A stretch of 27,018 nt of DNA from an uncultured Verrucomicrobiota bacterium (GTDB taxonomy: Bacteria; Verrucomicrobiota; Verrucomicrobiia; Limisphaerales; UBA11358), in NCBI GenBank assembly GCA_964249225.1, contig CAXUBD010000001.1, forward strand, positions 12,026-39,043, written 5' to 3'. Below, piece by piece: positions 5,386-27,018 of the stretch. The notes beneath the pieces were generated by a model. It saw nothing but the letters and a program-made list of their open reading frames with translations. It did not search any database and was not told where the DNA came from. Every line of letters starts with the position of its first letter. Position 1 is the first letter of the stretch. Position numbers and translations under genes: made by a program.

Positions 5386-6819
5386 TCAGTGATGTGCGGC
5401 TTCAAGTTGTTTGTGTTCAGCCGGAGCGGAAACTTCTTTTACATGACGCGCTTCATCCGCCGCGCCTTTCGCGACAAATTCATCTTTGAACTTCGCGACA
5501 AAACTTTGCACGGGCCAAGAACAGGCTTCGCCGAAGGCGCAAATCGTGCGACCGCCGGGAATGTTGTCGGCAATCTTCACGAGATAGTCCGCGTCGCTCG
5601 CGCGGCCTTCGCCGTGCGTGAGGCGATGCAGCGTCTTGCTCATCCAGAGCGCGCCTTCACGGCAGGGCGTGCATTGGCCGCAGCTTTCGTGCGCGTAAAA
5701 TTCTGCGATGTTCGCGAGCGCCTCGACGATGTCGGTCGAATCATCCATCACGATGATCGCGCTCGAACCGCTCATCGAACCGGCGGCGGACAGCGAATCG
5801 AAATCGTAAGGCAGATCCAGCATGTCGGTCTCGACCAGAATTTCTTTGCCCTCGGCATCCTTTTTCTTGAGCTTGAATTTCTCGCCGGCCTTGAAAACTT
5901 TCGCGGACGAACCGCCTGGAATCACGGCTTTCAATTTTCTTCCGTCGCGCAAACCGCCGCCGAATTTCGGGTCGTTGATGAGTTCGCCAATCGTCGCCTT
6001 GCCGACTTCGATTTCGTAATAGCCGGGTTTCTTGACGTGGCCGCTCAAGCTGACGATGCGCGTGCCGGTGTTGTTCGGCGTGCCGAGCTTGGCGAATTCC
6101 GCCGCGCCCATCGCGACGATGTGCTTCACGTTACAGAGCGTCTCGACGTTGTTGACGATCGTCGGACACATCCAAAGGCCGAGGATCGCCGGAAAATATG
6201 GCGGCTTGATGCGCGGATACGGACGCTTGCCTTCGAGCGATTCGATGAGGCCGGTTTCTTCGCCGCAAATGTAAGCACCCGCGCCGCGATGAACGTGCAT
6301 CTCCAAGTCGTAACCGGAACCAAGAATATTTTTGCCGAGAAAATTTTTCGCGCGCGCTTCTTTCAACGCCTGGTTCAAAATTTTTGCGCCGTCCACCATT
6401 TCGCCGCGGATGTAGATGTAAGCGAGATGCACGTCGTTCGCGAAGCACGAGATGATCATGCCTTCGAGCAACTGGTGCGGATCCTTATACATGATTTGCC
6501 GGTCCTTGAACGTGCCCGGCTCGGATTCGTCCGCGTTGCAAATGAGATAAATCGGCTTGCCACTCTTGCGATCAACAAAACTCCACTTCAAGCCGCAGGA
6601 AAAACCCGCGCCGCCGCGACCGCGCAGGCCGGAACTTTTCACGTCTTCGCGAATTTGTTCTTGGGCAGAAAGTTTTTTGCCATCCGGCAAATCTTTCGGC
6701 TGGATAGCAAGCGCCTTCTTGAGCGCGTCGTAGCCGCCATGGCGCAAATAGCATTCGATGTCCGGCGTGTAACCGGGTTCATCGGCATGTTTCAAAATCA
6801 ATTTATATTCTTGCGCCAT
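5386..6819 (-). CDS. nuoF: NADH-quinone oxidoreductase subunit F
   Basis: SGLRGRGGAGF, CNADESEPGTFKDR, GAGAYICGEET, HESCGQCTPCREG. ATG at 6819 preferred over TTG 6843. Confidence 0.97.
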   Translation of the reverse strand: MAQEYKLILKHADEPGYTPDIECYLRHGGYDALKKALAIQPKDLPDGKKLSAQEQIREDVKSSGLRGRGGAGFSCGLKWSFVDRKSGKPIYLICNADESEPGTFKDRQIMYKDPHQLLEGMIISCFANDVHLAYIYIRGEMVDGAKILNQALKEARAKNFLGKNILGSGYDLEMHVHRGAGAYICGEETGLIESLEGKRPYPRIKPPYFPAILGLWMCPTIVNNVETLCNVKHIVAMGAAEFAKLGTPNNTGTRIVSLSGHVKKPGYYEIEVGKATIGELINDPKFGGGLRDGRKLKAVIPGGSSAKVFKAGEKFKLKKKDAEGKEILVETDMLDLPYDFDSLSAAGSMSGSSAIIVMDDSTDIVEALANIAEFYAHESCGQCTPCREGALWMSKTLHRLTHGEGRASDADYLVKIADNIPGGRTICAFGEACSWPVQSFVAKFKDEFVAKGAADEARHVKEVSAPAEHKQLEAAHH

Positions 6820-6828
6820 ATCAGCAAC

Positions 6829-6856
6829 TTGACTCTCAATCAAATTTCTCTAGCCT
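6829..6856 (+). promoter_or_regulatory. Putative sigma70 promoter for tRNA-Gln
   Basis: TTGACT (6829-6834), 16-nt spacer, TAGCCT (6851-6856), 14 nt upstream of the tRNA. Confidence 0.55.
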
Positions 6857-6870
6857 GTTTCGTCCCGTCC

Positions 6871-6944
6871 TGCCCGATGGTGTAACGGTAGCACAACAGA
6901 CTCTGAATCTGTTTGTCATGGTTCAAATCCATGTCGGGCAACCA
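6871..6944 (+). tRNA. tRNA-Gln(CUG)
   Basis: Acceptor TGCCCGA/TCGGGCA, anticodon arm ACAGA-CTCTGAA-TCTGT, T arm CATGG-TTCAAAT-CCATG, encoded CCA. Confidence 0.96.
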
Positions 6945-6950
6945 TCCGTC

Positions 6951-6985
6951 ATTTACGATTTCAGATTTTCGATTGACGATTTTCA
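6951..6985. repeat. Degenerate 7-bp tandem array (ATTTACG/ATTTCAG/ATTTTCG/ATTGACG/ATTTTCA)
   Basis: ATT recurs at 6951, 6958, 6965, 6972 and 6979, between the tRNA 3' end and the nuoE stop. Confidence 0.75.
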
Positions 6986-7468
6986 TTTGCACTTTCCGAC
7001 AATCTCATCCGCTTTCGCGTGCGAAACGCCTTCGTAAAAATCATCGTTGCACATCATCACCGGCGCGGTGCCGCAGCTCGCGAGGCACTCGACAAATTCC
7101 ACGGTGAATTTTCCGTCCGGCGTCGTCTGCGCGCCGTGCTTGTGCGAATCCAATCCGAACTTCTTGCAAAAATGCTCGCGCAATTCATACGCGCCGCCGA
7201 GCGCGCAGCTCAACGTGCGGCAGACCTTGATCTGATATTTGCCCATCGGCTCCTGCCGCAGCATCGGATAAAACGTCAAAATTTCCTGGATGTTGATCGG
7301 CTGCAATTCCAGTTTTTTTGCCGTCCACAAAACCGCCTCGCGCGAAATCCAGCCGAATTTTTCCTGGATCGCGTGCAGCACCATGAGCGACGCGGCGCGT
7401 TTCACCGGATAGTGCGTGATCAGCTCGTCCACTTCGGCTTCCAATTCTTTTGTTGCTTGAAAACTCAT
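6983..7468 (-). CDS. nuoE: NADH-quinone oxidoreductase subunit E
   Basis: KVCRTLSCAL and VECLASCGTAPVM [2Fe-2S] ligands. Start ATG 7468; the longer call runs through the hairpin. Confidence 0.96.
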   Translation of the reverse strand: MSFQATKELEAEVDELITHYPVKRAASLMVLHAIQEKFGWISREAVLWTAKKLELQPINIQEILTFYPMLRQEPMGKYQIKVCRTLSCALGGAYELREHFCKKFGLDSHKHGAQTTPDGKFTVEFVECLASCGTAPVMMCNDDFYEGVSHAKADEIVGKCK

Positions 7469-7479
7469 TTGTTTTCTTT

Positions 7480-7541
7480 GCCACAGAGGCACAGAGAACA
7501 CAGAGCATTTTGTTTCTCTGTGAACCCTGTGACTCTGTGGC
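7480..7541. repeat. Intergenic hairpin, 8/9-bp periodic CAGAG units
   Basis: GCCACAGAGGCACAGAGAACACAGAG (7480-7505) pairs with CTCTGTGAACCCTGTGACTCTGTGGC (7516-7541). Confidence 0.85.
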
Positions 7542-7550
7542 TAAAAAATT

Positions 7551-8822
7551 TCATCGATCGGATTCTCCCATCACAAAATCAATCGAACCCAAAATCACCG
7601 GCACGTCACTGATCATTGCGCCCGGCATCAGTTCGCCGAGGATGCTCAAATTGATGAACGAGGGCGCGCGGATTTTCAGGCGATACGGCACGCCGCCGCC
7701 TTTGCTGTTGATGTAAAAGCCGAGTTCGCCTTTCGGATTTTCGTGGCCGAAATAAATTTCGCCGGGCGGACAATTCACGCCTTCGGTCACGAGCATGAAT
7801 TGATGGATCAATTCCTCCATCTTCGTCATCACTTTTTGCTTCGGCGGCAAAACAATTTTCCCATCGTCCACGTTGACCGGCTCGTGCGAATTATTTTCCG
7901 CGCCGCCGGGAATTTTGTTCAGGCACTGCTCCAGAATTCTCATGCTCTGCTTCATTTCTTCCATCCGCACGAGATAGCGGTCATAGCAATCGCCGACCGA
8001 GCCGGTGGGAATGTCGAACTCCAAATCCTTGTAGCAAAGATACGGCTGCGCCTTGCGCATGTCGTGTTCGACGCCGCTGCCGCGCAGGTTCGGGCCGCTC
8101 AAGCCGTAGTCAATCGCCATTTGTTTCGAGATGACGCCGAGGTCGCGCAGACGGTCCACCCAAATGCGATTGCGCGTGAGCAACGTGTGCGTTTCGGCGA
8201 GCGCGACGGCAAATTCTTTCAGGAACTGGCGGACTTGATCGCACCACGTCGGCGGAACATCGCGCATCAAACCGCCGATGCGCGTGTAAGTCGTCGTCAA
8301 GCGCGCGCCGCTCGCGGCTTCGGCGAGATTGTAAATTTTTTCGCGCTCGGTGAACGTCAGCAGAAAAACCGTGACCGCGCCGGTGTCCATCGCGAACGCG
8401 CCGAGGCCGAGCAGATGCGATGAAATGCGCGCGAGTTCCGCGCACATGACGCGGATGTATTGGCAGCGCGGTGGCAATTTGTCGTGGATGCCGAGAAGTT
8501 TTTCAACGGCGAGCGCGTAGGCGACGTTGTTCGCGAGCGGCGCGAGATAATCCAGCCGGTCCGTGTAAGGGATGAACTGGGTGTAGGTCATGTTCTCGGC
8601 GATTTTTTCGTCGCCGCGATGCAGATAGCCCACGTCCGGATCGGCTTTCGTGATGACTTCGCCGTCGAGTTCCAAAACGATCCGCAAGACGCCGTGCGTA
8701 GCCGGATGCGACGGCCCCATGTTCAGCACCATGCGCTCGCCCTGGATGTCCGGCAAATCATCCACGGCCGCCGCCGTGCGGGCGGCGGAATCGCGAATCT
8801 CAATGTCTTGAACAGTGGCCAT
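7551..8822 (-). CDS. nuoD: NADH-quinone oxidoreductase subunit D
   Basis: NMGPSHPATHGVLR, GYLHRGDEK, DRLDY, ENPKGELG, IDFVMGESDR. Confidence 0.97.
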   Translation of the reverse strand: MATVQDIEIRDSAARTAAAVDDLPDIQGERMVLNMGPSHPATHGVLRIVLELDGEVITKADPDVGYLHRGDEKIAENMTYTQFIPYTDRLDYLAPLANNVAYALAVEKLLGIHDKLPPRCQYIRVMCAELARISSHLLGLGAFAMDTGAVTVFLLTFTEREKIYNLAEAASGARLTTTYTRIGGLMRDVPPTWCDQVRQFLKEFAVALAETHTLLTRNRIWVDRLRDLGVISKQMAIDYGLSGPNLRGSGVEHDMRKAQPYLCYKDLEFDIPTGSVGDCYDRYLVRMEEMKQSMRILEQCLNKIPGGAENNSHEPVNVDDGKIVLPPKQKVMTKMEELIHQFMLVTEGVNCPPGEIYFGHENPKGELGFYINSKGGGVPYRLKIRAPSFINLSILGELMPGAMISDVPVILGSIDFVMGESDR

Positions 8823-11717: not shown

Positions 11718-12233
11718 TCAAACGCCCGGCGTGTTGGTCGCGGCCGGCGGCGGAAAATTGGCCGGCGCGTTTGTGGCGCCGGACGGGCGGCGCGGCGGAT
11801 GTTTCATCAAATCTTCAAATTGTTTCCGCTGGTCCGGCGTGAGCTGCTCACGGATTTGCTGCCGCGCATCCTGCAGCACCTTGCGCATCTGCGCGGCGTT
11901 GTTGGTCCAGATCACGCGGTCCTGCTCCTGGCCGTCGGCAATGATTTTCTCAATTTTATCGCGCTGCTCGGGCGCGAGCTGAAGCGTGTCGTTCAGCCGC
12001 CCGACAAATTCCTTGCCCCACATTTCCGGCAGGCGCAGCTTGGGGAATTCTGCCGCGCGCGACAGATTCGGGCTGTTCGTTTTCGGAATGGAATTGGTGG
12101 CGAAAAAGGCCGTCTCCGGCCGCTTGGAATTTTTCGGGCGTGTATGCTGGACGCAATTGACGAGCAATCCGCCCGTCATCACCCCGGCGGCAAAAATCAC
12201 CACGGTGGCCAGAATGACTTTCCAGTAATTCAC
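11718..12233 (-). CDS. Membrane-anchored helical protein, Spy/CpxP-like (LTxxQ motif)
   Basis: N-terminal hydrophobic segment, LAPEQRDKI and LTPDQRKQF repeats; third gene of an ECF cluster. Confidence 0.65.
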   Translation of the reverse strand: MNYWKVILATVVIFAAGVMTGGLLVNCVQHTRPKNSKRPETAFFATNSIPKTNSPNLSRAAEFPKLRLPEMWGKEFVGRLNDTLQLAPEQRDKIEKIIADGQEQDRVIWTNNAAQMRKVLQDARQQIREQLTPDQRKQFEDLMKHPPRRPSGATNAPANFPPPAATNTPGV

Positions 12234-17769: not shown

Positions 17770-18501
17770 GTGAGCAACGCCTTTTACCTCCCCGGCGAAC
17801 AGCGCGCCGCCAAGGTCAACGACCTTTTCGCCCGCATCGCGCGTCGTTATGATTTGATCAACGACCTGCAAAGCTTCGGCCTCCATCGGCTCTGGAAACG
17901 CCGCGTCGTCAATCTTGCAAAAATCAAAAGCGGCGACCGCGCGCTCGATCTGTGCTGCGGCACCGGCGACATTTCTTTTTCGCTTGCCAGAGATGGCGTG
18001 GAAACGATCGGTTTGGATTTTAGTCCGCAAATGTTGGAAGTGGCGGAATCGCGAAGACAGAAGGAAAATCGCAAATCGCAAATCGCAAATCTAAAATTTC
18101 TTCAAGGCGACGCGCAGCAGCTTCCGTTTCCAGAAAATTTCTTCGACATCGTCACTGTCGGCTACGGCCTGCGGAATCTGACGAGCTGGGAACGCGGCTT
18201 GGACGAAATGTTCCGCGTGGCCAAGCCTGGCGCGCGATTGATTGTTCTGGATTTTGGCAAGCCAGCGAACGCCTTCTGGCGCGCGCTTTATTTTGCGCAC
18301 CTGAAATGTTCCGTGCCGCTCATCGGACTTTTATTTTGCGGCAATGCGCAAGCCTACGCCTACATTTTGGAATCGCTGAAAAATTATCCGGCGCAACTGG
18401 CTGTGGCAGAAAAAATGCGCGGCCTGAAACTCGCGAACGTGCGCGTCATCAACCTGCTCGGCGGCGCGATGGCGATCAATTACGGGGAAAAGCCGGTTTG
18501 A
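17770..18501 (+). CDS. ubiE: UbiE/MenG-family quinone C-methyltransferase
   Basis: KVNDLFARIARRYDLINDLQSFGLHRLWK, ALDLCCGTGD, GDAQQLPF, GYGLRN, RVAKPGARL. Confidence 0.9.
   Translation: MSNAFYLPGEQRAAKVNDLFARIARRYDLINDLQSFGLHRLWKRRVVNLAKIKSGDRALDLCCGTGDISFSLARDGVETIGLDFSPQMLEVAESRRQKENRKSQIANLKFLQGDAQQLPFPENFFDIVTVGYGLRNLTSWERGLDEMFRVAKPGARLIVLDFGKPANAFWRALYFAHLKCSVPLIGLLFCGNAQAYAYILESLKNYPAQLAVAEKMRGLKLANVRVINLLGGAMAINYGEKPV
18064..18097 (+). repeat. 7-bp tandem repeat (GCAAATC x3 plus degenerate flanks) inside ubiE
   Basis: GAAAATC GCAAATC GCAAATC GCAAATC TAAAATT, translated in frame within KENRKSQIANLKF. Confidence 0.85.
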
Positions 18502-18508
18502 TTCAATA

Positions 18509-18553
18509 AAGAAAGCAGGAATTCAGGAACGAATCCAATTCCTGTTTTCCTTA
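18509..18553. terminator. 8-bp periodic hairpin between convergent ubiE and MBL genes; possible bidirectional terminator
   Basis: AAGAAAGCAGGAATTCAGGAA pairs imperfectly with TTCCTGTTTTCCTTA. Confidence 0.5.
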
Positions 18554-19432
18554 TTTGAATTTTGGCGTGGAACTTTTTGCGCCCAACTGAATCGTCATTC
18601 CCTCGCGCGCGGCGTCCACTTTTAATTTTCCCTTTTGCCGGGTCACAATCTGGCGCGCGTATTTCAGGAAGGCATCAATTTTTTTGTCGTTGTGCGCGGA
18701 GTCGTGGTGGAAGAGGCAGAGTTTTTTCACGCCGGCGGTCAGTGCGAGCGCCACGGAATCGTCCACGCAGCCGTGCCCCCAGCCGATGTGTTTTTTATAT
18801 TCCGCGCGGTCGTATTGCGAATCAAGGATGAGCACGTCGGCGTCGCGGACGAATTCGATCATGTCCCGGTCGTCGCCGCCGAGGCGCGGTTCGGTGTCGG
18901 GAAAATAAGCGACCAGTCCGTCGGGCGAAAAGAGCCGGTAGCCGACGCACACGCCGGGATGGTTCGCGCGTTGCGCGCGCACGAGCACGGGGCCGATGTC
19001 GAAACTGAAATCTTTCAGTTCTTCGATTTCAATGTTGCTGGGCAGCTTGGCGAAGGGCACGGGAAAATAAGTGCTTTCCATCTGGCCGGTGAGCGCTTGG
19101 AGCAGACTTTCGCGCGAACCCTGGCAGCCGAGAATCCGCAGGCGGCAGCGGGGATTGTATATCGGCGCGAAAAACGGCAGGCCCTGGATGTGATCCCAAT
19201 GCGTGTGCGTGATGAGCAGCGTGAGGTTCAACGGCTTGTTCTTGAATTCCGCCACCAACGCCAGTCCGAGCGGACGCAAACCGGTGCCGGCATCGAGAAT
19301 GATGATTTCGTCGCCGCACCGGACTTCGACGCAGGAGGTGTTGCCACCATAACGTATGGTGCCCGGACCCGGCGTGGGGACCGAGCCGCGCACTCCCCAA
19401 AATTTTATGCTCGTGACGCTTTTGATGGGCAT
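18551..19432 (-). CDS. MBL-fold metallo-hydrolase (RNase Z/phosphodiesterase-like)
   Basis: FWGVRGS, YGGNTSC, DAGTG, THTHWDHIQG, NHPG, DSQY, GWGH, LFHHD. Confidence 0.9.
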   Translation of the reverse strand: MPIKSVTSIKFWGVRGSVPTPGPGTIRYGGNTSCVEVRCGDEIIILDAGTGLRPLGLALVAEFKNKPLNLTLLITHTHWDHIQGLPFFAPIYNPRCRLRILGCQGSRESLLQALTGQMESTYFPVPFAKLPSNIEIEELKDFSFDIGPVLVRAQRANHPGVCVGYRLFSPDGLVAYFPDTEPRLGGDDRDMIEFVRDADVLILDSQYDRAEYKKHIGWGHGCVDDSVALALTAGVKKLCLFHHDSAHNDKKIDAFLKYARQIVTRQKGKLKVDAAREGMTIQLGAKSSTPKFK

Positions 19433-19493
19433 AGCCTAACGCATCGCGGAAAAAAATAAAATTAAAACAACATCGCCGGACGCTTGAAAAATC

Positions 19494-19521
19494 TTGCGCA
19501 TTGGCGCGGCTGTTTTAGAAT
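19494..19521 (+). promoter_or_regulatory. Putative sigma70 promoter of the tRNA-Lys locus
   Basis: TTGCGC (19494-19499), 16-nt spacer, TAGAAT (19516-19521). Confidence 0.6.
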
Positions 19522-19535
19522 GATCATCTTTGAGT

Positions 19536-19573
19536 GGGTTGGTAGCTCAGTCGGTAGAGCAGTGCCCTTTTAA
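19536..19573 (+). pseudogene. 5' half of tRNA-Lys(UUU), positions 1-38 only
   Basis: GGGTTGG-TA-GCTCAGTCGGTAGAGC-A-GTGCC-CTTTTAA, then TTCAAAAAGG, which cannot pair with GTGCC. No T arm or 3' acceptor found downstream in the window. Confidence 0.88.
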
Positions 19574-19712
19574 TTCAAAAAGGCCGATTTTAGCCATTTT
19601 TATCAGTTTTTAATTCTCCCTTGCCATCATTACAGAAGCCTTGATTTCATTGACTGCTCTCGTTGTTTCGATGTCATCTCTTGTCTTCTCATAAAATCCA
19701 AAAAAATTCTTT

Positions 19713-19845
19713 CGGGTTACAAGTCGGGTGCAAGTTTTTTTGGTGCCTTTAAGGCACTTTCTGCACCCAAATTTGAAGGCGACTTGCACCCGGAGATCAG
19801 TTCGACCCCGGTAATTGCTGATTAAAAAGCGGGTGCAAGTTTTTT
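19713..19845. repeat. Cluster of CGGGTGCAAGT direct and inverted repeats
   Basis: CGGGTTACAAGT 19713-19724, CGGGTGCAAGTTTTTT 19725-19740 and 19830-19845, inverted ACTTGCACCCG 19782-19792, partial CTGCACCC 19761-19768. Confidence 0.85.
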
Positions 19846-20642: not shown

Positions 20643-20984
20643 TTAAAAATATTTTTTGGTCAGCAAGGCGGGATCAAATGAATCCGGTTTTAACACGAGG
20701 CCAAGTTTTTCATTGTGGATATGTTTGAGAATCATTTCCTCCACTGATTTGCTGGCATCGAATTTTGGATACAAAGCGTCTTTGGGAACGTCCAGCACGC
20801 TGGCCAGCCAGCACACTTGGTAGTCATAAACGTGAACCAACCGGCTTTCGATTTTGGAAACGCCGCTGCGAGAAATCATCCAGCCCCTCCGCTGCAACGC
20901 ATCGGCCAGATCGCCCTGCGTCCAGCGATTCTCGTCGCGGAACTTGCCGACCTGTCTGCCGACCAGATTGTTCGACACATTCAT
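20643..20984 (-). CDS. XRE-family HTH transcriptional regulator (copy 1)
   Basis: VGRQVGKFR...WTQGDLA...ISRSGVSKIE...LASVLDV. Confidence 0.85.
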   Translation of the reverse strand: MNVSNNLVGRQVGKFRDENRWTQGDLADALQRRGWMISRSGVSKIESRLVHVYDYQVCWLASVLDVPKDALYPKFDASKSVEEMILKHIHNEKLGLVLKPDSFDPALLTKKYF

Positions 20985-21140
20985 TTTCAACCGGCTCAAT
21001 TTCTCATTTGCGCGCCGAAATTTTGGCCTGAATTCAGGACAAAATGACGTTCCGGCTCATTTTTCCACGCACCGCCATTTTCATTGTTACCGTTCAGAAC
21101 AAAATTTTGCCGACGGTTTTACCACAATTCGTTTCACTAG

Positions 21141-21550: not shown

Positions 21551-21814
21551 ATGGATCACAATGCAAATGTCATTGGCCGAAACGTGGGCAAATTTCGGTA
21601 TCAAAACGGTTGGACTCAAGAGGAACTTGCTGCAAAAATGCAATTGTTGGGTTGTCACATAACCCGTCAGATTATTGCCAACATTGAAACTCGTCGTTCT
21701 TCTGTAGGCGACAAACGAATCGAGTATTTCGCAGAGGTCTTCGGTTTGGAAGTGGGCGATTTATTTCCGAAAAAACGACACTTCAGCGGGCGTATGGTGG
21801 GATTGGAAGCGTAA
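21551..21814 (+). CDS. XRE-family HTH transcriptional regulator (copy 2)
   Basis: IGRNVGKFR...WTQEELA...ITRQIIANIE...FAEVFGL; ungapped paralog of copy 1. Confidence 0.85.
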   Translation: MDHNANVIGRNVGKFRYQNGWTQEELAAKMQLLGCHITRQIIANIETRRSSVGDKRIEYFAEVFGLEVGDLFPKKRHFSGRMVGLEA

Positions 21815-22687: not shown

Positions 22688-22847
22688 AGACGACATGATT
22701 GTGACAGAAGACACTGGATGGCGCTCTAAAAATGTTAATCACCACCGCTCTTAAACAACCGTGCAGATTCCAAGCGTGCCTTCCTAAGTTGGACGCGTGA
22801 TAATGCAATAGTCGCAAAACGGTATCAAAACAGGCATGATATTTTTG

Positions 22848-25800
22848 ATGTCCGAGCCAGTTCAAAAGACGATAATTCCGTGGAAACGTTTTTGGTGTCG
22901 TTTCGGAGATGCAATCCATGTTGGAGAAGACCGACAGGGTTTTCTCACCGACCCCGAAGGCGAATTGTTCACGCGTCTGCACAATCCGCATCTTTTCACG
23001 TTCGACAAATTGCTGAATGAGAAATGCCTGATTCTATGTGGTGATCCCGGCACTGGCAAAAGCACTGTGCTTCAGCAGGCAAAATCCACCTTGGAAAATT
23101 CGCTTGGCGCAGACGGCAAGCTTATCTGGTTGGAATTCCGCGACGTGCCAAGTGATTCCGCTTTTGCACGACGAACATTTGAATCAGATGTTTGGAAGCA
23201 GTGGCAAAACTCCACGGGCAAACTTGTTCTGGTAGTGGATGGCGTTGACGAGGGTTTGGTCAAAATACCCGGCTTCGTCGCTTATCTGGCGAGTGAGTTG
23301 CGCAACGCACCGATTCAACGGCTTCAAATCGTGCTTGCGTGCCGTTCCGCCGTGTGGCCGGTTAGCGAAGGCGAGCAATTGATTCAGCTTTGGGGCATCA
23401 TTGAAAAACCCCCTGTTTTTGAGCTATGCCCATTACGTCATCGCGATGCCGTTCAGGCCGCAGAGATGGTGGGAATAGATGCAGTTAAGTTTATCCAGGC
23501 GATTTATCAGCAAAAGGTCGTCGGATTGGCGGCATTGCCGACAACTTTATTTTTCCTGCTGGATGAGTTTCGCGATGGTGGCGCATTTAGTGGGACGCAT
23601 CGGGAACTTTACGAACGAGGATGCCAGCGATTAGCGCGTGAAAATGACCCACAACGTATTGCAACGCTGCGGATGCTCCGAAATTCCGGTCGCGTCTCGA
23701 CGCCGGATGAAATTTACGAAGCCGCGCGTCGCCTTGCCGCGCTCCTTCTTCTATGCGGAAAATCAGCAATCCATATCGGCCCGATTGCAGATGCGAGCGC
23801 AGACGCCGATTTACATTTAAGCCAAGCGGTTGACAGTTCTGGTCTTGAAGTCAGTCCGCTCACAGAGGCCGTCTTTGACAACGCGGTTTGCAGCGCACTT
23901 TTTACGTCACGCGGACCACATAGGTTTGGATTTGCACATCAGACTTTCGCGGAATGCTTGGCAGCACAATTTCTGTCCCGCCTGCCGCTGGTGCAAATAA
24001 GAAAACTCCTGTGTGCTCGCGATGCCGGGGACGAACACGTCATTCCTCAATTGGCCGAAACAGCCGCATGGGTTGCCGGTATTCATGAAGATTTTTTTGA
24101 TTACCTGTGCCGGATCGAACCGGAAGCCTTGATACGAAGCGACATTTCAAAAGTTCAAAACCACCGGAAACAAGATTTGGTTGCGGCAATTTTGGAAAAG
24201 GCGAAGCGCGCGGATTTATTTGATGAAAGAAATTTTGACCGCTTTTTTAGCAGCCTAAAACACCCGCAGATTGCAAGCCAGCTTCGGCTTTATATTGCGG
24301 ACAAGACGCTCAACATCGTGGTGCGAAGAATGGCAATGAGCATTGCGCGCGAATGTGAGGTCATTGAATTGTGTGATGACTTTTTACGCATGATTCAAGA
24401 CGCGTCCGAAGCCCAGCAGTTTCGAGATCAGGCGGCTTACACGCTGGAGAATTTAACACCAGCCGCCCGGCTTGCCGAATTAATCCCACTTGCAACCGAA
24501 AAATCTGACCCGGATGACACCATACGCGGTTGCGCCATCCGTCGGCTCGTCCCAGAATTATGGTCGGTCTCACAAGCCGTGCCTTATCTTCATGCGCCGC
24601 GCAACGACCATTTTTTCGGTTCGTATCATTCGCTCCTGAAATATCACTTGCCCCGGCATCTCAAAGATGAGGACGCGCTGTTGATTTTGGAACTGCTTGT
24701 CCAAAAAACTCATTGTTTTGACACCATAAATGCCTTTCAAGAATTAGCCGAAGCCGCTTTCGTTCTGGCACTCAAAAATCTTTCAAAGCCCGACATCTGC
24801 CGGTTGGCGGTTCAAGTCTGGATGACGAAGGCAAAAAACTATCACCCACTGCCCCGCACTGCGGACTCGGCTGTTTTCAAATTATTTCGAGAGCGCGAAG
24901 ATTTGCGCCGAGAATTTGTCGCAGCCATCGTCAATGACCCGCAAATATCCGCTGACGACTTGATTCATTTTCGCAGCGGCGTTGGTTCGTTGTCTTCGCA
25001 GAATGATCTTGAATGGGCATTGCTTCAGATTGAAAAGTCGCCCCATGAACGACGAACGGCATGGGCTTCACTGATTTGGTCTGATTGCCAACCTGAATCC
25101 GCCTGCAAATGTTGGGATTTGTTGTTGCGGCAAATTAAAGAAATCCCCGAGCTGGAAAACAAATTCTCATGGCTGCGAGCATGGGATTTGGATGAGCCGA
25201 TTGCACGACAAGCGAAAGCGCAGTGGTTGAGGCAACAGCGATGGAAAAATCAGCATAAAAGACGAACACCAAGCCGGGACAATAAAAAATTACTAGAACA
25301 AGATTTTGCAGACATTGCCGCCGGAAAAACTTTCCGTTGGATTGAGCTTTGCGGTCAACTCACGGTGGAAGAAGACCAGACTCATATTTTTCACCCATTA
25401 ACTCACGATCTCACCGAATATCCGGGTTGGAAATGTGCCGACGAAGCTCGACGAAAAATCATTCGCGATGCCGCCAGAAATTTCCTCTTAAAACACAGTG
25501 ACGGTTATGCTGAAATTGGCGCTCCAACAAATTATTTTGAGCCTGGTTATATCGCAATATGGCTGCTTCGTGATGAAATTCGTGGTGACGCGGAATTAAG
25601 GACGGCAGTTGGCACGAAGTGGATTGATGCCTTGATTGGGCATTTCAACGGCGGGAGCGATTATTATCAGGAAACGGCGGCGCTGGCGTATGAATTAAGC
25701 CCCGACGCAACCTTGCGCGGATTCATCCGGGAGGCGAAAGCCGATGATAAGCAACACGGACAAATTCTCTCGCTGCACGGTTTTCGCAAATGTTGGGACG

Positions 25801-27018
25801 CGCGCTTCACTGCGGCGGCGTTGGATTTGATTCGCAATGGCAACCTCAAAAACGGCAGCATTGAATCCATTCTTCAAATCGTTGCGCCAATCGCACCAAT
25901 GGAAGCTGCCGCTTGTGCTGAACCGCTTCTTGATTCCGCATCGCTCGCAAACGCAGCAAACGATGAACGAACCGTCAATGTTTTAGCGGCGTGCATCGGT
26001 GGAATGCCTGCCGAGACATGGCACTTTGTGTGGCCAATCATTGAGGCCAATTCATCTTTGGCGGAAAAAGTTCTGACTCGCATTGCCGACCGAATAAATT
26101 ATCACCGGGAAAAATGCCTGCCAATGTTGACGGAAAAACAACTGGCTGATCTATATCTGAAAGTTCACAATTTTTTCCCGCCTGAAACTGATCCCGACTT
26201 CTCTCGCGGCGGATTTGTAAGTCCTCGCCAAAGTGTCGTGCATTTTCGTGGTGACATCATCGGCGCGCTGGAAGCGCGCGGAACAGAAGAGGCGTGCAAT
26301 GAGCTTTTACGGCTGGCGAATGCCTTGCCACGAGAAAACCTGTGGCTGCGCTGGCGCTATTACAACGCCCGAACGAGCAAGCGGCGCAAATCATGGATTC
26401 CACCAGAGCCAAAAATTGTCCTCGGTCTCGCTGCTCGTGCAGAGGCGCGGCTTGTTATTGATGCAGACGATCTCATGGAAGTCGTGCTGGAATCACTGAA
26501 CCGACTTCAAATCCAACTTACCCAAAACACTCTGCCTCGAAGCGAAGATTTGTGGAATTGGGATGGGGCCGATACACGGCGGCAAAACTTTCGCCACCTC
26601 GACGAAGCATTTTTATCGAATTATATTGCGCGCTGGCTACGCGATGATTTGGGTCAACGCGGAATTATCATTGGCCGAGAAGTGCAACCGCGCCTTGGGC
26701 AACGCACAGACATCCATGTCACTGCTGTGCCGCTTGAACAGACATCTTCTTTGCAAAATGTAACGGTGATTATTGAAATCAAAGGCTGTTGGAATAGTGA
26801 AGTGCGCACTGCAATTGACGCGCAACTTGTTGGCGACTATCTCCGTCCTAACGGCCTAACACACGGAATTTACTTGGTTGGTTGGTTTGTGTGCGACAAA
26901 TGGAGCAATCCGCAGAATAAATTGACGAGCCAAACATTTGCCGATGCGCAACAAGAAGTTGTTCAACTTGCCGCTGCGTATGACGGCAAAACCAATCCAG
27001 AGCGCATTGCCGCAATCG
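22848..27018 (+). CDS. NACHT/STAND NTPase with helical repeat region and C-terminal PD-(D/E)xK nuclease (>=1390 aa, 3'-partial)
   Basis: Frame translated by hand with no stop from ATG 22848 (alternative 22836) to the edge. Walker A GDPGTGKST (23040-23066), Walker B LVLVVDGVDE (23223-23252), sensor ACR, WHD FAHQTFAECLAA, C-terminal REVQ..RTDIHV...VIIEIKG. Confidence 0.9.
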   Translation, partial: MSEPVQKTIIPWKRFWCRFGDAIHVGEDRQGFLTDPEGELFTRLHNPHLFTFDKLLNEKCLILCGDPGTGKSTVLQQAKSTLENSLGADGKLIWLEFRDVPSDSAFARRTFESDVWKQWQNSTGKLVLVVDGVDEGLVKIPGFVAYLASELRNAPIQRLQIVLACRSAVWPVSEGEQLIQLWGIIEKPPVFELCPLRHRDAVQAAEMVGIDAVKFIQAIYQQKVVGLAALPTTLFFLLDEFRDGGAFSGTHRELYERGCQRLARENDPQRIATLRMLRNSGRVSTPDEIYEAARRLAALLLLCGKSAIHIGPIADASADADLHLSQAVDSSGLEVSPLTEAVFDNAVCSALFTSRGPHRFGFAHQTFAECLAAQFLSRLPLVQIRKLLCARDAGDEHVIPQLAETAAWVAGIHEDFFDYLCRIEPEALIRSDISKVQNHRKQDLVAAILEKAKRADLFDERNFDRFFSSLKHPQIASQLRLYIADKTLNIVVRRMAMSIARECEVIELCDDFLRMIQDASEAQQFRDQAAYTLENLTPAARLAELIPLATEKSDPDDTIRGCAIRRLVPELWSVSQAVPYLHAPRNDHFFGSYHSLLKYHLPRHLKDEDALLILELLVQKTHCFDTINAFQELAEAAFVLALKNLSKPDICRLAVQVWMTKAKNYHPLPRTADSAVFKLFREREDLRREFVAAIVNDPQISADDLIHFRSGVGSLSSQNDLEWALLQIEKSPHERRTAWASLIWSDCQPESACKCWDLLLRQIKEIPELENKFSWLRAWDLDEPIARQAKAQWLRQQRWKNQHKRRTPSRDNKKLLEQDFADIAAGKTFRWIELCGQLTVEEDQTHIFHPLTHDLTEYPGWKCADEARRKIIRDAARNFLLKHSDGYAEIGAPTNYFEPGYIAIWLLRDEIRGDAELRTAVGTKWIDALIGHFNGGSDYYQETAALAYELSPDATLRGFIREAKADDKQHGQILSLHGFRKCWDARFTAAALDLIRNGNLKNGSIESILQIVAPIAPMEAAACAEPLLDSASLANAANDERTVNVLAACIGGMPAETWHFVWPIIEANSSLAEKVLTRIADRINYHREKCLPMLTEKQLADLYLKVHNFFPPETDPDFSRGGFVSPRQSVVHFRGDIIGALEARGTEEACNELLRLANALPRENLWLRWRYYNARTSKRRKSWIPPEPKIVLGLAARAEARLVIDADDLMEVVLESLNRLQIQLTQNTLPRSEDLWNWDGADTRRQNFRHLDEAFLSNYIARWLRDDLGQRGIIIGREVQPRLGQRTDIHVTAVPLEQTSSLQNVTVIIEIKGCWNSEVRTAIDAQLVGDYLRPNGLTHGIYLVGWFVCDKWSNPQNKLTSQTFADAQQEVVQLAAAYDGKTNPERIAAI

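Follow-up and report, generated by a model that had tools for sequence, protein, structure and literature searches.

A displaced tRNA-Lys(UUU) 5′ half as the probable attachment scar of a reversed-polarity mobilizable element in Verrucomicrobiota

How a tRNA gene can be cut at its anticodon loop, with its promoter and 5′ half running straight into foreign DNA and no repair in sight, is the question raised by a stretch of 27,018 nucleotides from an uncultured Verrucomicrobiota bacterium (GenBank assembly GCA_964249225.1, contig CAXUBD010000001.1, positions 12,026 to 39,043), here called the window. The first-pass annotation, made from the letters of the window, had recognised a native-looking promoter, tRNA-Lys(UUU) positions 1–38 ending at CTTTTAA, and foreign sequence with no 3′ half in the next 7.4 kb. 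Three outcomes were offered: a reversed repair, in which the inserted element supplies a promoter and a 5′ half at its far end; the destruction of a redundant tRNA; or production of tRNA-Lys conditional on excision. It proposed to look for the matching 3′ half and what precedes it, to count the intact tRNA-Lys(UUU) genes and to identify the integrase, and set beside these outcomes an old, decayed tRNA with neither 3′ half nor integrase, and a chimeric assembly junction. The comparison with the rest of the genome and with relatives makes it very probable that window positions 19536–19573 are the attL scar of an integrative mobilizable element inserted with reversed polarity into a single-copy tRNA-Lys(UUU) gene. 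The source genome, G000, is a draft of 335 contigs (92% complete, 3.3% estimated contamination), and the window corresponds to exactly one contig (C1:12026-39043) of an N10-joined scaffold, so that the element extends past the window by scaffolding only. The N runs of scaffold C1 lie at 800-809, 8104-8113, 12016-12025 and 39044-39053.

The fragment in the window comprises the acceptor 5′ strand, the D arm, the 5′ strand of the anticodon stem and the complete 7-nt loop, and it is 100% identical to positions 6635-6672 of another contig of the same genome, C89 (blastn-short E = 1e-15). The block of identity between the two contigs covers 19535-19573, that is, base −1 and tRNA positions 1–38, and everything further upstream differs. 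In a whole-genome search the 5′ half was found in two copies (window and C89) and the 3′ half in one (C89 only), each with E = 1e-15. After position 38 the sequence continues as TTCAAAA..., which is unrelated to tRNA, and the GC content falls from ~0.55-0.57 on the left of the junction to 0.44-0.51 on its right; the 3′ half is absent from the remaining 7.4 kb of the window. The first-pass annotation thus had both the limits of the fragment and the foreign nature of what follows it right. Neither ARAGORN nor Rfam calls a tRNA at the fragment, as expected for a half gene.

On its left, the fragment still stands in its host context (Table 1). In same-genus genomes, too, tRNA-Lys(UUU) has an orthologue of the adjoining hydrolase (66-79% identity) as its neighbour, and the block A5-TCTTGCG-N17-TAnnnT is conserved upstream of the displaced fragment in G003, G011 and G013 as well as upstream of the intact tRNA-Lys at the island-free sites of G014, G007 and G016. 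In the window, its boxes are CTTGCG at 19493-19498 and TAGAAT at 19516-19521. The native-looking promoter of the first-pass annotation is therefore retained as a conserved block, but it stays below threshold in a strict sigma-70 consensus scan; the promoter assignments in this work, native and element-borne, rest on conservation, strict sigma-70 scans having found neither. Folding of the fragment with its downstream sequence revealed no significant RNA structure or terminator after it (z-scores 0.45-0.97), which makes it plausible that transcription from the native promoter could carry on into the element, as a tRNA-half transcript antisense to the first element genes.

Table 1. Features of the left junction, its host flank and the element (window coordinates unless contig C89 is named).
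Feature	Position	Strand	Evidence and remarks
Host UbiE/COQ5-type methyltransferase	17770..18501	+	Pfam PF01209, 4.7e-59; syntenic with the hydrolase in same-genus genomes; conserved host flank
Host metallo-beta-lactamase-fold hydrolase, left host flank of the tRNA-Lys locus	18551..19432	-	Pfam PF12706, 3.2e-15
Native tRNA-Lys promoter region kept at attL (A-tract, CTTGCG-N17-TAGAAT)	19493..19521	+	Conservation; presumed active
Displaced tRNA-Lys(UUU) 5′ fragment, very probably the attL copy of the direct repeat	19536..19573	+	Identity to C89; same fragment in G003, G011, G013, G041-G045
Element left arm (P′ arm), core to arm-type sites	19574..19713	+	Starts TTCAAAA; alignable in G000, G011, G013, G052, G053
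Tandem arm-type 11-mers GGGTTACAAGT and GGGTGCAAGT, putative integrase arm-binding sites of attL	19714..19735	+	
Two more arm-type motif copies, inverted (19782-19791) and direct (19831-19840)	19782..19840		Read directly from the sequence
First conserved left-end element gene, 186 aa	19845..20405	-	65% to the first gene of the complete G011 element; 61-67% to G052, G053, G054
HTH (Xre-type) regulator	20643..20999	-	Pfam HTH_31, 7e-5; PHROG 3 repressor
HTH (Xre-type) regulator	21551..21814	+	Pfam HTH_3, 6.7e-6; PHROG 3, 4.6e-9
NACHT/STAND antiphage-type protein (Erebus EruA-like), cargo	22836..27017	+	Open at the window end
Tyrosine integrase, 497 aa	C89:5040-6533	-	Probable ATG at ~C89:6533, ~100 nt from tRNA +1, reading away from the tRNA

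The missing half is found on C89. G000 has two tRNA-Lys genes, one UUU and one CUU, and its sole intact tRNA-Lys(UUU) lies at C89:6635-6710, where the identical 5′ half is preceded by a region of element type and the 3′ side runs into host lptF/G, followed by a GAF histidine kinase. G000 has no separate free-standing tRNA-Lys(UUU) gene, and tRNA prediction gave no free-standing gene in those parts of the element that lie in the window and on C89. Next to the intact tRNA lies a tyrosine integrase with matches to Pfam PF00589 (1e-13), PF14659 and PF22022 and to PHROG 1 (3e-51). Of its catalytic residues, R225, H317-x-x-R320 and Y354 show no variation among 12 aligned relatives, and H343 is kept in all the aligned sequences shown but one, which has Tyr; in a PDB sequence search its only match was to an N-terminal SAM-like domain. 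Beyond the integrase, C89 continues upstream with two small ORFs, a TrwC relaxase (6e-79) and ParA. The 3′ half, the single intact gene and the integrase thus occur together, in the arrangement that the first-pass annotation had called reversed repair, while its two other outcomes, a redundant tRNA destroyed and a tRNA conditional on excision, are contradicted by an intact single-copy gene that is present while the element is integrated.

The host gene downstream of the intact tRNA has a peculiarity of its own. The lptF/G of G000 (L003, C89 6766-7888) is split into overlapping ORFs, 6766-7206 and 7097-7888, in different frames, and the two matching parts form a single frame in L007/G009, the one relative checked. 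Either a frameshift or an assembly error accounts for this split in a gene that is normally essential.

Related genomes show the same site in both its states. Island-free loci of the same genus have the order hydrolase–tRNA-Lys(UUU)–lptF/G with 270-310 nt of intergenic sequence (G009, G007, G016 and G020), and this interval with tRNA-Lys alone is the unoccupied target. In G000, the fragment and the intact tRNA are on separate contigs, and their flanks, hydrolase and lptF/G, respectively, fit the island-free order of the relatives. The 1-38 fragment also adjoins the hydrolase in G003 and G013. The whole occupied arrangement is seen on one 386-kb contig of G011, which reads lptF/G, native promoter, fragment 1-38, a 27.4 kb element, the integrase gene, the intact tRNA and the hydrolase. 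The last genes of this element are 73% (TrwC) and 78% (integrase) identical to those on C89; since its end genes match both the right part of the window and C89, the two are ends of one element family. Four further elements of 18-36 kb, each on a single contig, are bounded by direct repeats of exactly tRNA positions 1-38. Single contigs of G011, G003 and G042-G045 show the fragment upstream of, and co-oriented with, the intact tRNA gene and the island in the interval, and the recombinant tRNA-Lys(UUU) is the only copy in at least G000 and G011.

Other traces of integration are present at this tRNA gene. In L038 (G003:C9, 2490-5016), 2.4 kb separate a perfect 1-38 fragment from an intact tRNA-Lys, and the stretch contains a truncated integrase-like ORF of another lineage (43-47% identity) in the opposite orientation, and the region upstream of the tRNA is also a different one. 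It seems, therefore, that the 5′-half site serves a second integrase lineage as well. In L018 (G017), an 829-nt hydrolase-lptF/G intergenic region holds a decayed 5′ fragment beside the native promoter, as well as a tRNA-Lys 3′ fragment (~positions 44-76) ~350 nt downstream, which implies that islands of both polarities have used this tRNA gene.

Both ends of the element carry an arm motif, GGGT(T/G)(A/C)CAAGT, in tandem pairs at fixed positions, and judged from their sequence these tandem 11-mers look like putative arm-type integrase sites. The attL pair lies ~179 nt from tRNA +1, at the same distance as in G011 and G013. The matching pair at attR, between the integrase gene and the tRNA, is present in 22/22 aligned elements and overlaps a promoter-like site for the integrase gene. 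The two additional copies at attL sit in a ~110-nt stretch that G000 shares with G013 and that is missing from G011. A palindrome at window 19743-19757, GTGCC-TTTAA-GGCAC, likewise in a ~110-nt stretch that G011 lacks, resembles a tRNA anticodon arm; considered as a conserved part of the attachment site, this mimic was dropped, being partly kept in G013 and absent from G011.

The spacer between the integrase gene and the tRNA is conserved across the 22 elements. Most have an nAnAAT hexamer at -11 to -6, which is TGn-extended in ~8 of them; this -10-like hexamer stands only 5 nt from tRNA +1 and would give an almost leaderless precursor. A sigma-70 scan of the tRNA-upstream region of the element gave no + strand match near the tRNA. 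Because the recombinant tRNA-Lys(UUU) is the sole copy, an element-borne promoter must work; the upstream region of the element, a poor match to the sigma-70 consensus, would be that promoter, and the bases assigned to it are presumptive.

The position of the crossover can be approached from the limits of the shared block, which ends exactly at the last anticodon-loop base in both tRNAs concerned, 38 in tRNA-Lys and 37 in tRNA-Met, and which points to an exchange in the anticodon loop. The attP carries TTCAAAA where the 3′ strand of the anticodon stem would be expected, and it does not have the symmetric core that a crossover in the anticodon loop would call for. Fragment and intact gene never differ at D-loop position 17 (C or T), which in the comparison of L053 with L054, two elements with identical spacers, follows the host T-arm allele, a pattern that leaves room for a crossover further 5′. 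Among ~10 genomes, no polymorphism between fragment and intact gene was found that would place the crossover; the sole mismatch, at position 30 in G054, is in a decayed tandem scar.

The polarity of the insertion extends well beyond G000. A search with the integrase retrieved 31 loci, nearly all of them from Verrucomicrobiota MAGs of peat and soil. Where the integrase is >=70% identical and enough sequence upstream of it is available for evaluation, tRNA-Lys(UUU) lies ~100 nt upstream of the integrase gene, divergent from it and with its 5′ end facing it (21/21 loci). Relatives at 55-60% identity have the same placement at tRNA-Met(CAT) (5 loci) and tRNA-Val(GAC) (1 locus), and the repeat that flanks one tRNA-Met element (26.7 kb) comprises positions 1-37 and likewise ends at the last anticodon-loop base. 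Given this consistent placement at Lys, Met and Val tRNAs, the polarity is a property of the clade. In an alignment of G000 with L044-L069, the tRNA-Lys-targeting integrases have a ~115-aa C-terminal extension past the catalytic Tyr region, which the tRNA-Met-targeting relatives do not have. At L045, L046, L050, L056 and L062, the integrase stands beside a Verrucomicrobiota-type tRNA-Lys in bins named Limnocylindrales, Sulfopaludibacter, Sulfotelmatobacter, Baltobacteraceae and Saccharimonadales; these contigs are probably mis-binned and not instances of cross-phylum transfer.

As to its gene content, the presence of integrase, relaxase and ParA makes the element, which is incomplete in G000, a probable integrative mobilizable element, for which mobilization would be expected. 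Type IV secretion genes were absent from the ten large ORFs scanned (seven in the complete G011 relative, the others in the G000 scaffold tail), and no oriT was identified. The 186-aa ORF at the left end, checked as a possible excisionase or regulator, had no match in Pfam, NCBIfam or PHROGs, and nothing usable came from the Atlas. The NACHT protein matches NCBIfam NF058535 at 2e-78, under the family cut-off, as well as Pfam nSTAND_NTPase5, and the next scaffold piece past the window encodes a HATPase_c_3 protein, an O-methyltransferase and a C5 DNA methylase. The cargo of the complete G011 relative is biosynthetic.

These elements would fit together in the following way. The inserting DNA would be a mobilizable element that carries a tyrosine integrase, a TrwC/MOBF relaxase and ParA and whose cargo in G000 includes defence genes, and its attP would consist, in order, of the integrase gene reading away, two arm sites, the element promoter region, tRNA positions 1-38, ~140 nt and two further arm sites. 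Recombination within the shared 38 nt would leave the native promoter and the native 5′ half at the left junction, in the window, where they are followed by element DNA and unable to make a tRNA. At the right junction, on C89, the upstream region of the element and its 5′ half are fused to the native 3′ half, which regenerates the only tRNA-Lys(UUU) of the genome. The two junctions lie on separate contigs; synteny and the arrangement in relatives suggest that the window and C89 belong to a single insertion as its opposite ends, and the element is presumably still able to excise.

The tRNA-Lys locus of this genus varies in a further respect. The cassette of native promoter, tRNA-Lys(UUU) and terminator occurs in both orientations between the same hydrolase and lptF/G in same-genus genomes, with L007, L012, L015, L016 and L021 having one orientation (type A) and L018, L019, L013, L025 and the window the other (type B). 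In a tree of the hydrolase protein, types A and B do not form separate groups: both occur within one well-supported clade, and G017 (B) is the sister of G011 (A), so that at least 2-3 independent flips are implied. Integrase-mediated inversion was ruled out as their cause, since the breakpoints flank the whole promoter-tRNA cassette, with none inside the tRNA or at its anticodon loop; an exchange in the loop in the wrong orientation would also destroy the only tRNA-Lys(UUU). No mechanism for the flips was found in the same-genus loci compared.

A more far-reaching proposal would combine three things: reversed polarity throughout a clade that uses at least three tRNA identities, a near-leaderless tRNA-Lys made from a promoter that the element modulates, and an orphaned native promoter whose antisense transcript, led by a tRNA half, acts as a sensor of the integrated state. 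The -10-like box ~5 nt from tRNA +1 stands beside the arm-binding sites, so that binding of the integrase or a partner could modulate it, and the recurrent flipping of the cassette could be a by-product of traffic at the tRNA-Lys site. As a whole, we regard this combination as unlikely.

Among the explanations that compete with a single reversed insertion, the one that fares best, though we hold it to be distinctly unlikely, is that the attL of the window and the attR of C89 come from separate insertions in a tandem array, with the older of two elements lying by the native promoter and the newer by the tRNA. What the window contains would then be the scar left by an earlier element, possibly a decayed one. 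Arrays of this kind do have parallels: in G053 and G054, junctions of element promoter, 5′ half and left arm adjoin integrase remnants of ~58 residues and are therefore tandem scars, not circles; in G044, a second, shorter fragment (1-27) lies 65 nt away from the 1-38 one; and G000 itself contains other TrwC-bearing contigs. Nevertheless, a tandem array of two elements needs three 5′ halves, and the 92%-complete draft of G000, in which a middle copy may have gone unassembled, has two.

A chimera made at 19573/19574 during assembly or binning, with two organisms joined through a tRNA 5′ half, is very improbable. The fragmented draft with its estimated contamination, a 5′ half that is nearly invariant across the genus and the drop in GC at the junction would all suit such an error, but a break at exactly position 38 recurs in at least 9 other genomes, several of them on single contigs of between 80 kb and 1 Mb, and in G011, G013, G052 and others the break leads into the same left arm of the element. 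Moreover, the complementary junction exists on C89, and G000 has no contig with an island-free site and only one hydrolase gene. The chimera raised by the first-pass annotation is set aside on these grounds, and the decayed tRNA that it had also considered gives way to the 3′ half and the integrase, both of which exist. Least probable of all is an element that destroys the tRNA without rebuilding it, the cell relying on a redundant or element-borne copy or on production after excision (compare PMC10865867), which would account for the unrepaired promoter-proximal junction and the lack of a 3′ half within the window but, provided that C89 comes from the same organism, is at odds with the single tRNA-Lys(UUU) of the genome being the recombinant gene at the other junction, fused to the host 3′ half and flank.

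With a single insertion of reversed polarity as the preferred reading, the apparent paradox of a split essential tRNA gene without visible repair is settled. The family adds complete elements, arm-type sites and island-free sites to the sparsely documented tRNA islands of 5′ polarity, in a phylum whose mobile elements are little annotated. Such islands will escape annotation pipelines that look for 3′ fragments downstream of tRNAs, and these pipelines may call the fragment a pseudogene or an assembly error. The family also offers a test case for how an element takes over the promoter of a single-copy essential tRNA, and for what sets the polarity of tRNA-targeting integrases.

Several known systems share features with these elements. 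In tRNA-dependent lysogeny (PMC10865867), the element brings a separate replacement tRNA and leaves its target unreconstructed, whereas here the tRNA is reconstructed at C89 and no replacement gene is predicted. Integrative mobilizable elements with a MOBF/TrwC relaxase are similar in combining integrase, relaxase and ParA, with no type IV secretion genes among the large ORFs scanned. In the anticodon-loop sublocation class (Williams 2002, as described in PMC4383910 and 10.1101/2020.11.02.365908), crossover takes place in the 7-nt loop, with symmetric stem strands in attB and attP. As far as those accounts describe the class, the present elements resemble it in having the edge of element-host identity at the anticodon loop (38 in Lys, 37 in Met) and differ from it as a mirror image, since the block extends here to the 5′ end and attP is without the 3′ stem strand.

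A closer parallel in polarity is offered by Klebsiella pneumoniae arg2A-VII and others with clade I.d integrases, which are reported to integrate upstream of tRNA-Arg, "in contrast to all other GIs" (10.1101/2020.11.02.365908). There, too, the polarity goes with one particular clade of integrases. Compared by description, the sublocation is the D-loop for some of those islands, whereas the shared block here runs from +1 to the last anticodon-loop base, and the phylum, tRNA and integrases differ. In the Islander statistics, 3760 islands have a 3′ fragment and 159/3919 a 5′ fragment (PMC4383910, Table 1). The latter islands are like those described here in that an intact tRNA gene and a co-directional cognate 5′ end fragment bracket an island with a tyrosine integrase, and in that the island must bring the 5′ part of the tRNA and hence the promoter. 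An element with "reversed target orientation" has likewise been reported (Zhao & Williams 2002, as cited in PMC6563490 and PMC1635311). Set against these two precedents, to the extent that the cited accounts describe them, the present case differs in its hosts, which are Verrucomicrobiota known from peat and soil MAGs, in elements that are mobilizable by relaxase only, and in involving a whole integrase clade (~30 loci; Lys, Met and Val) with no exception among the evaluable loci. Reversed polarity is a rare but known kind of tRNA integration, and the elements described here are a new, well-delimited family of it.
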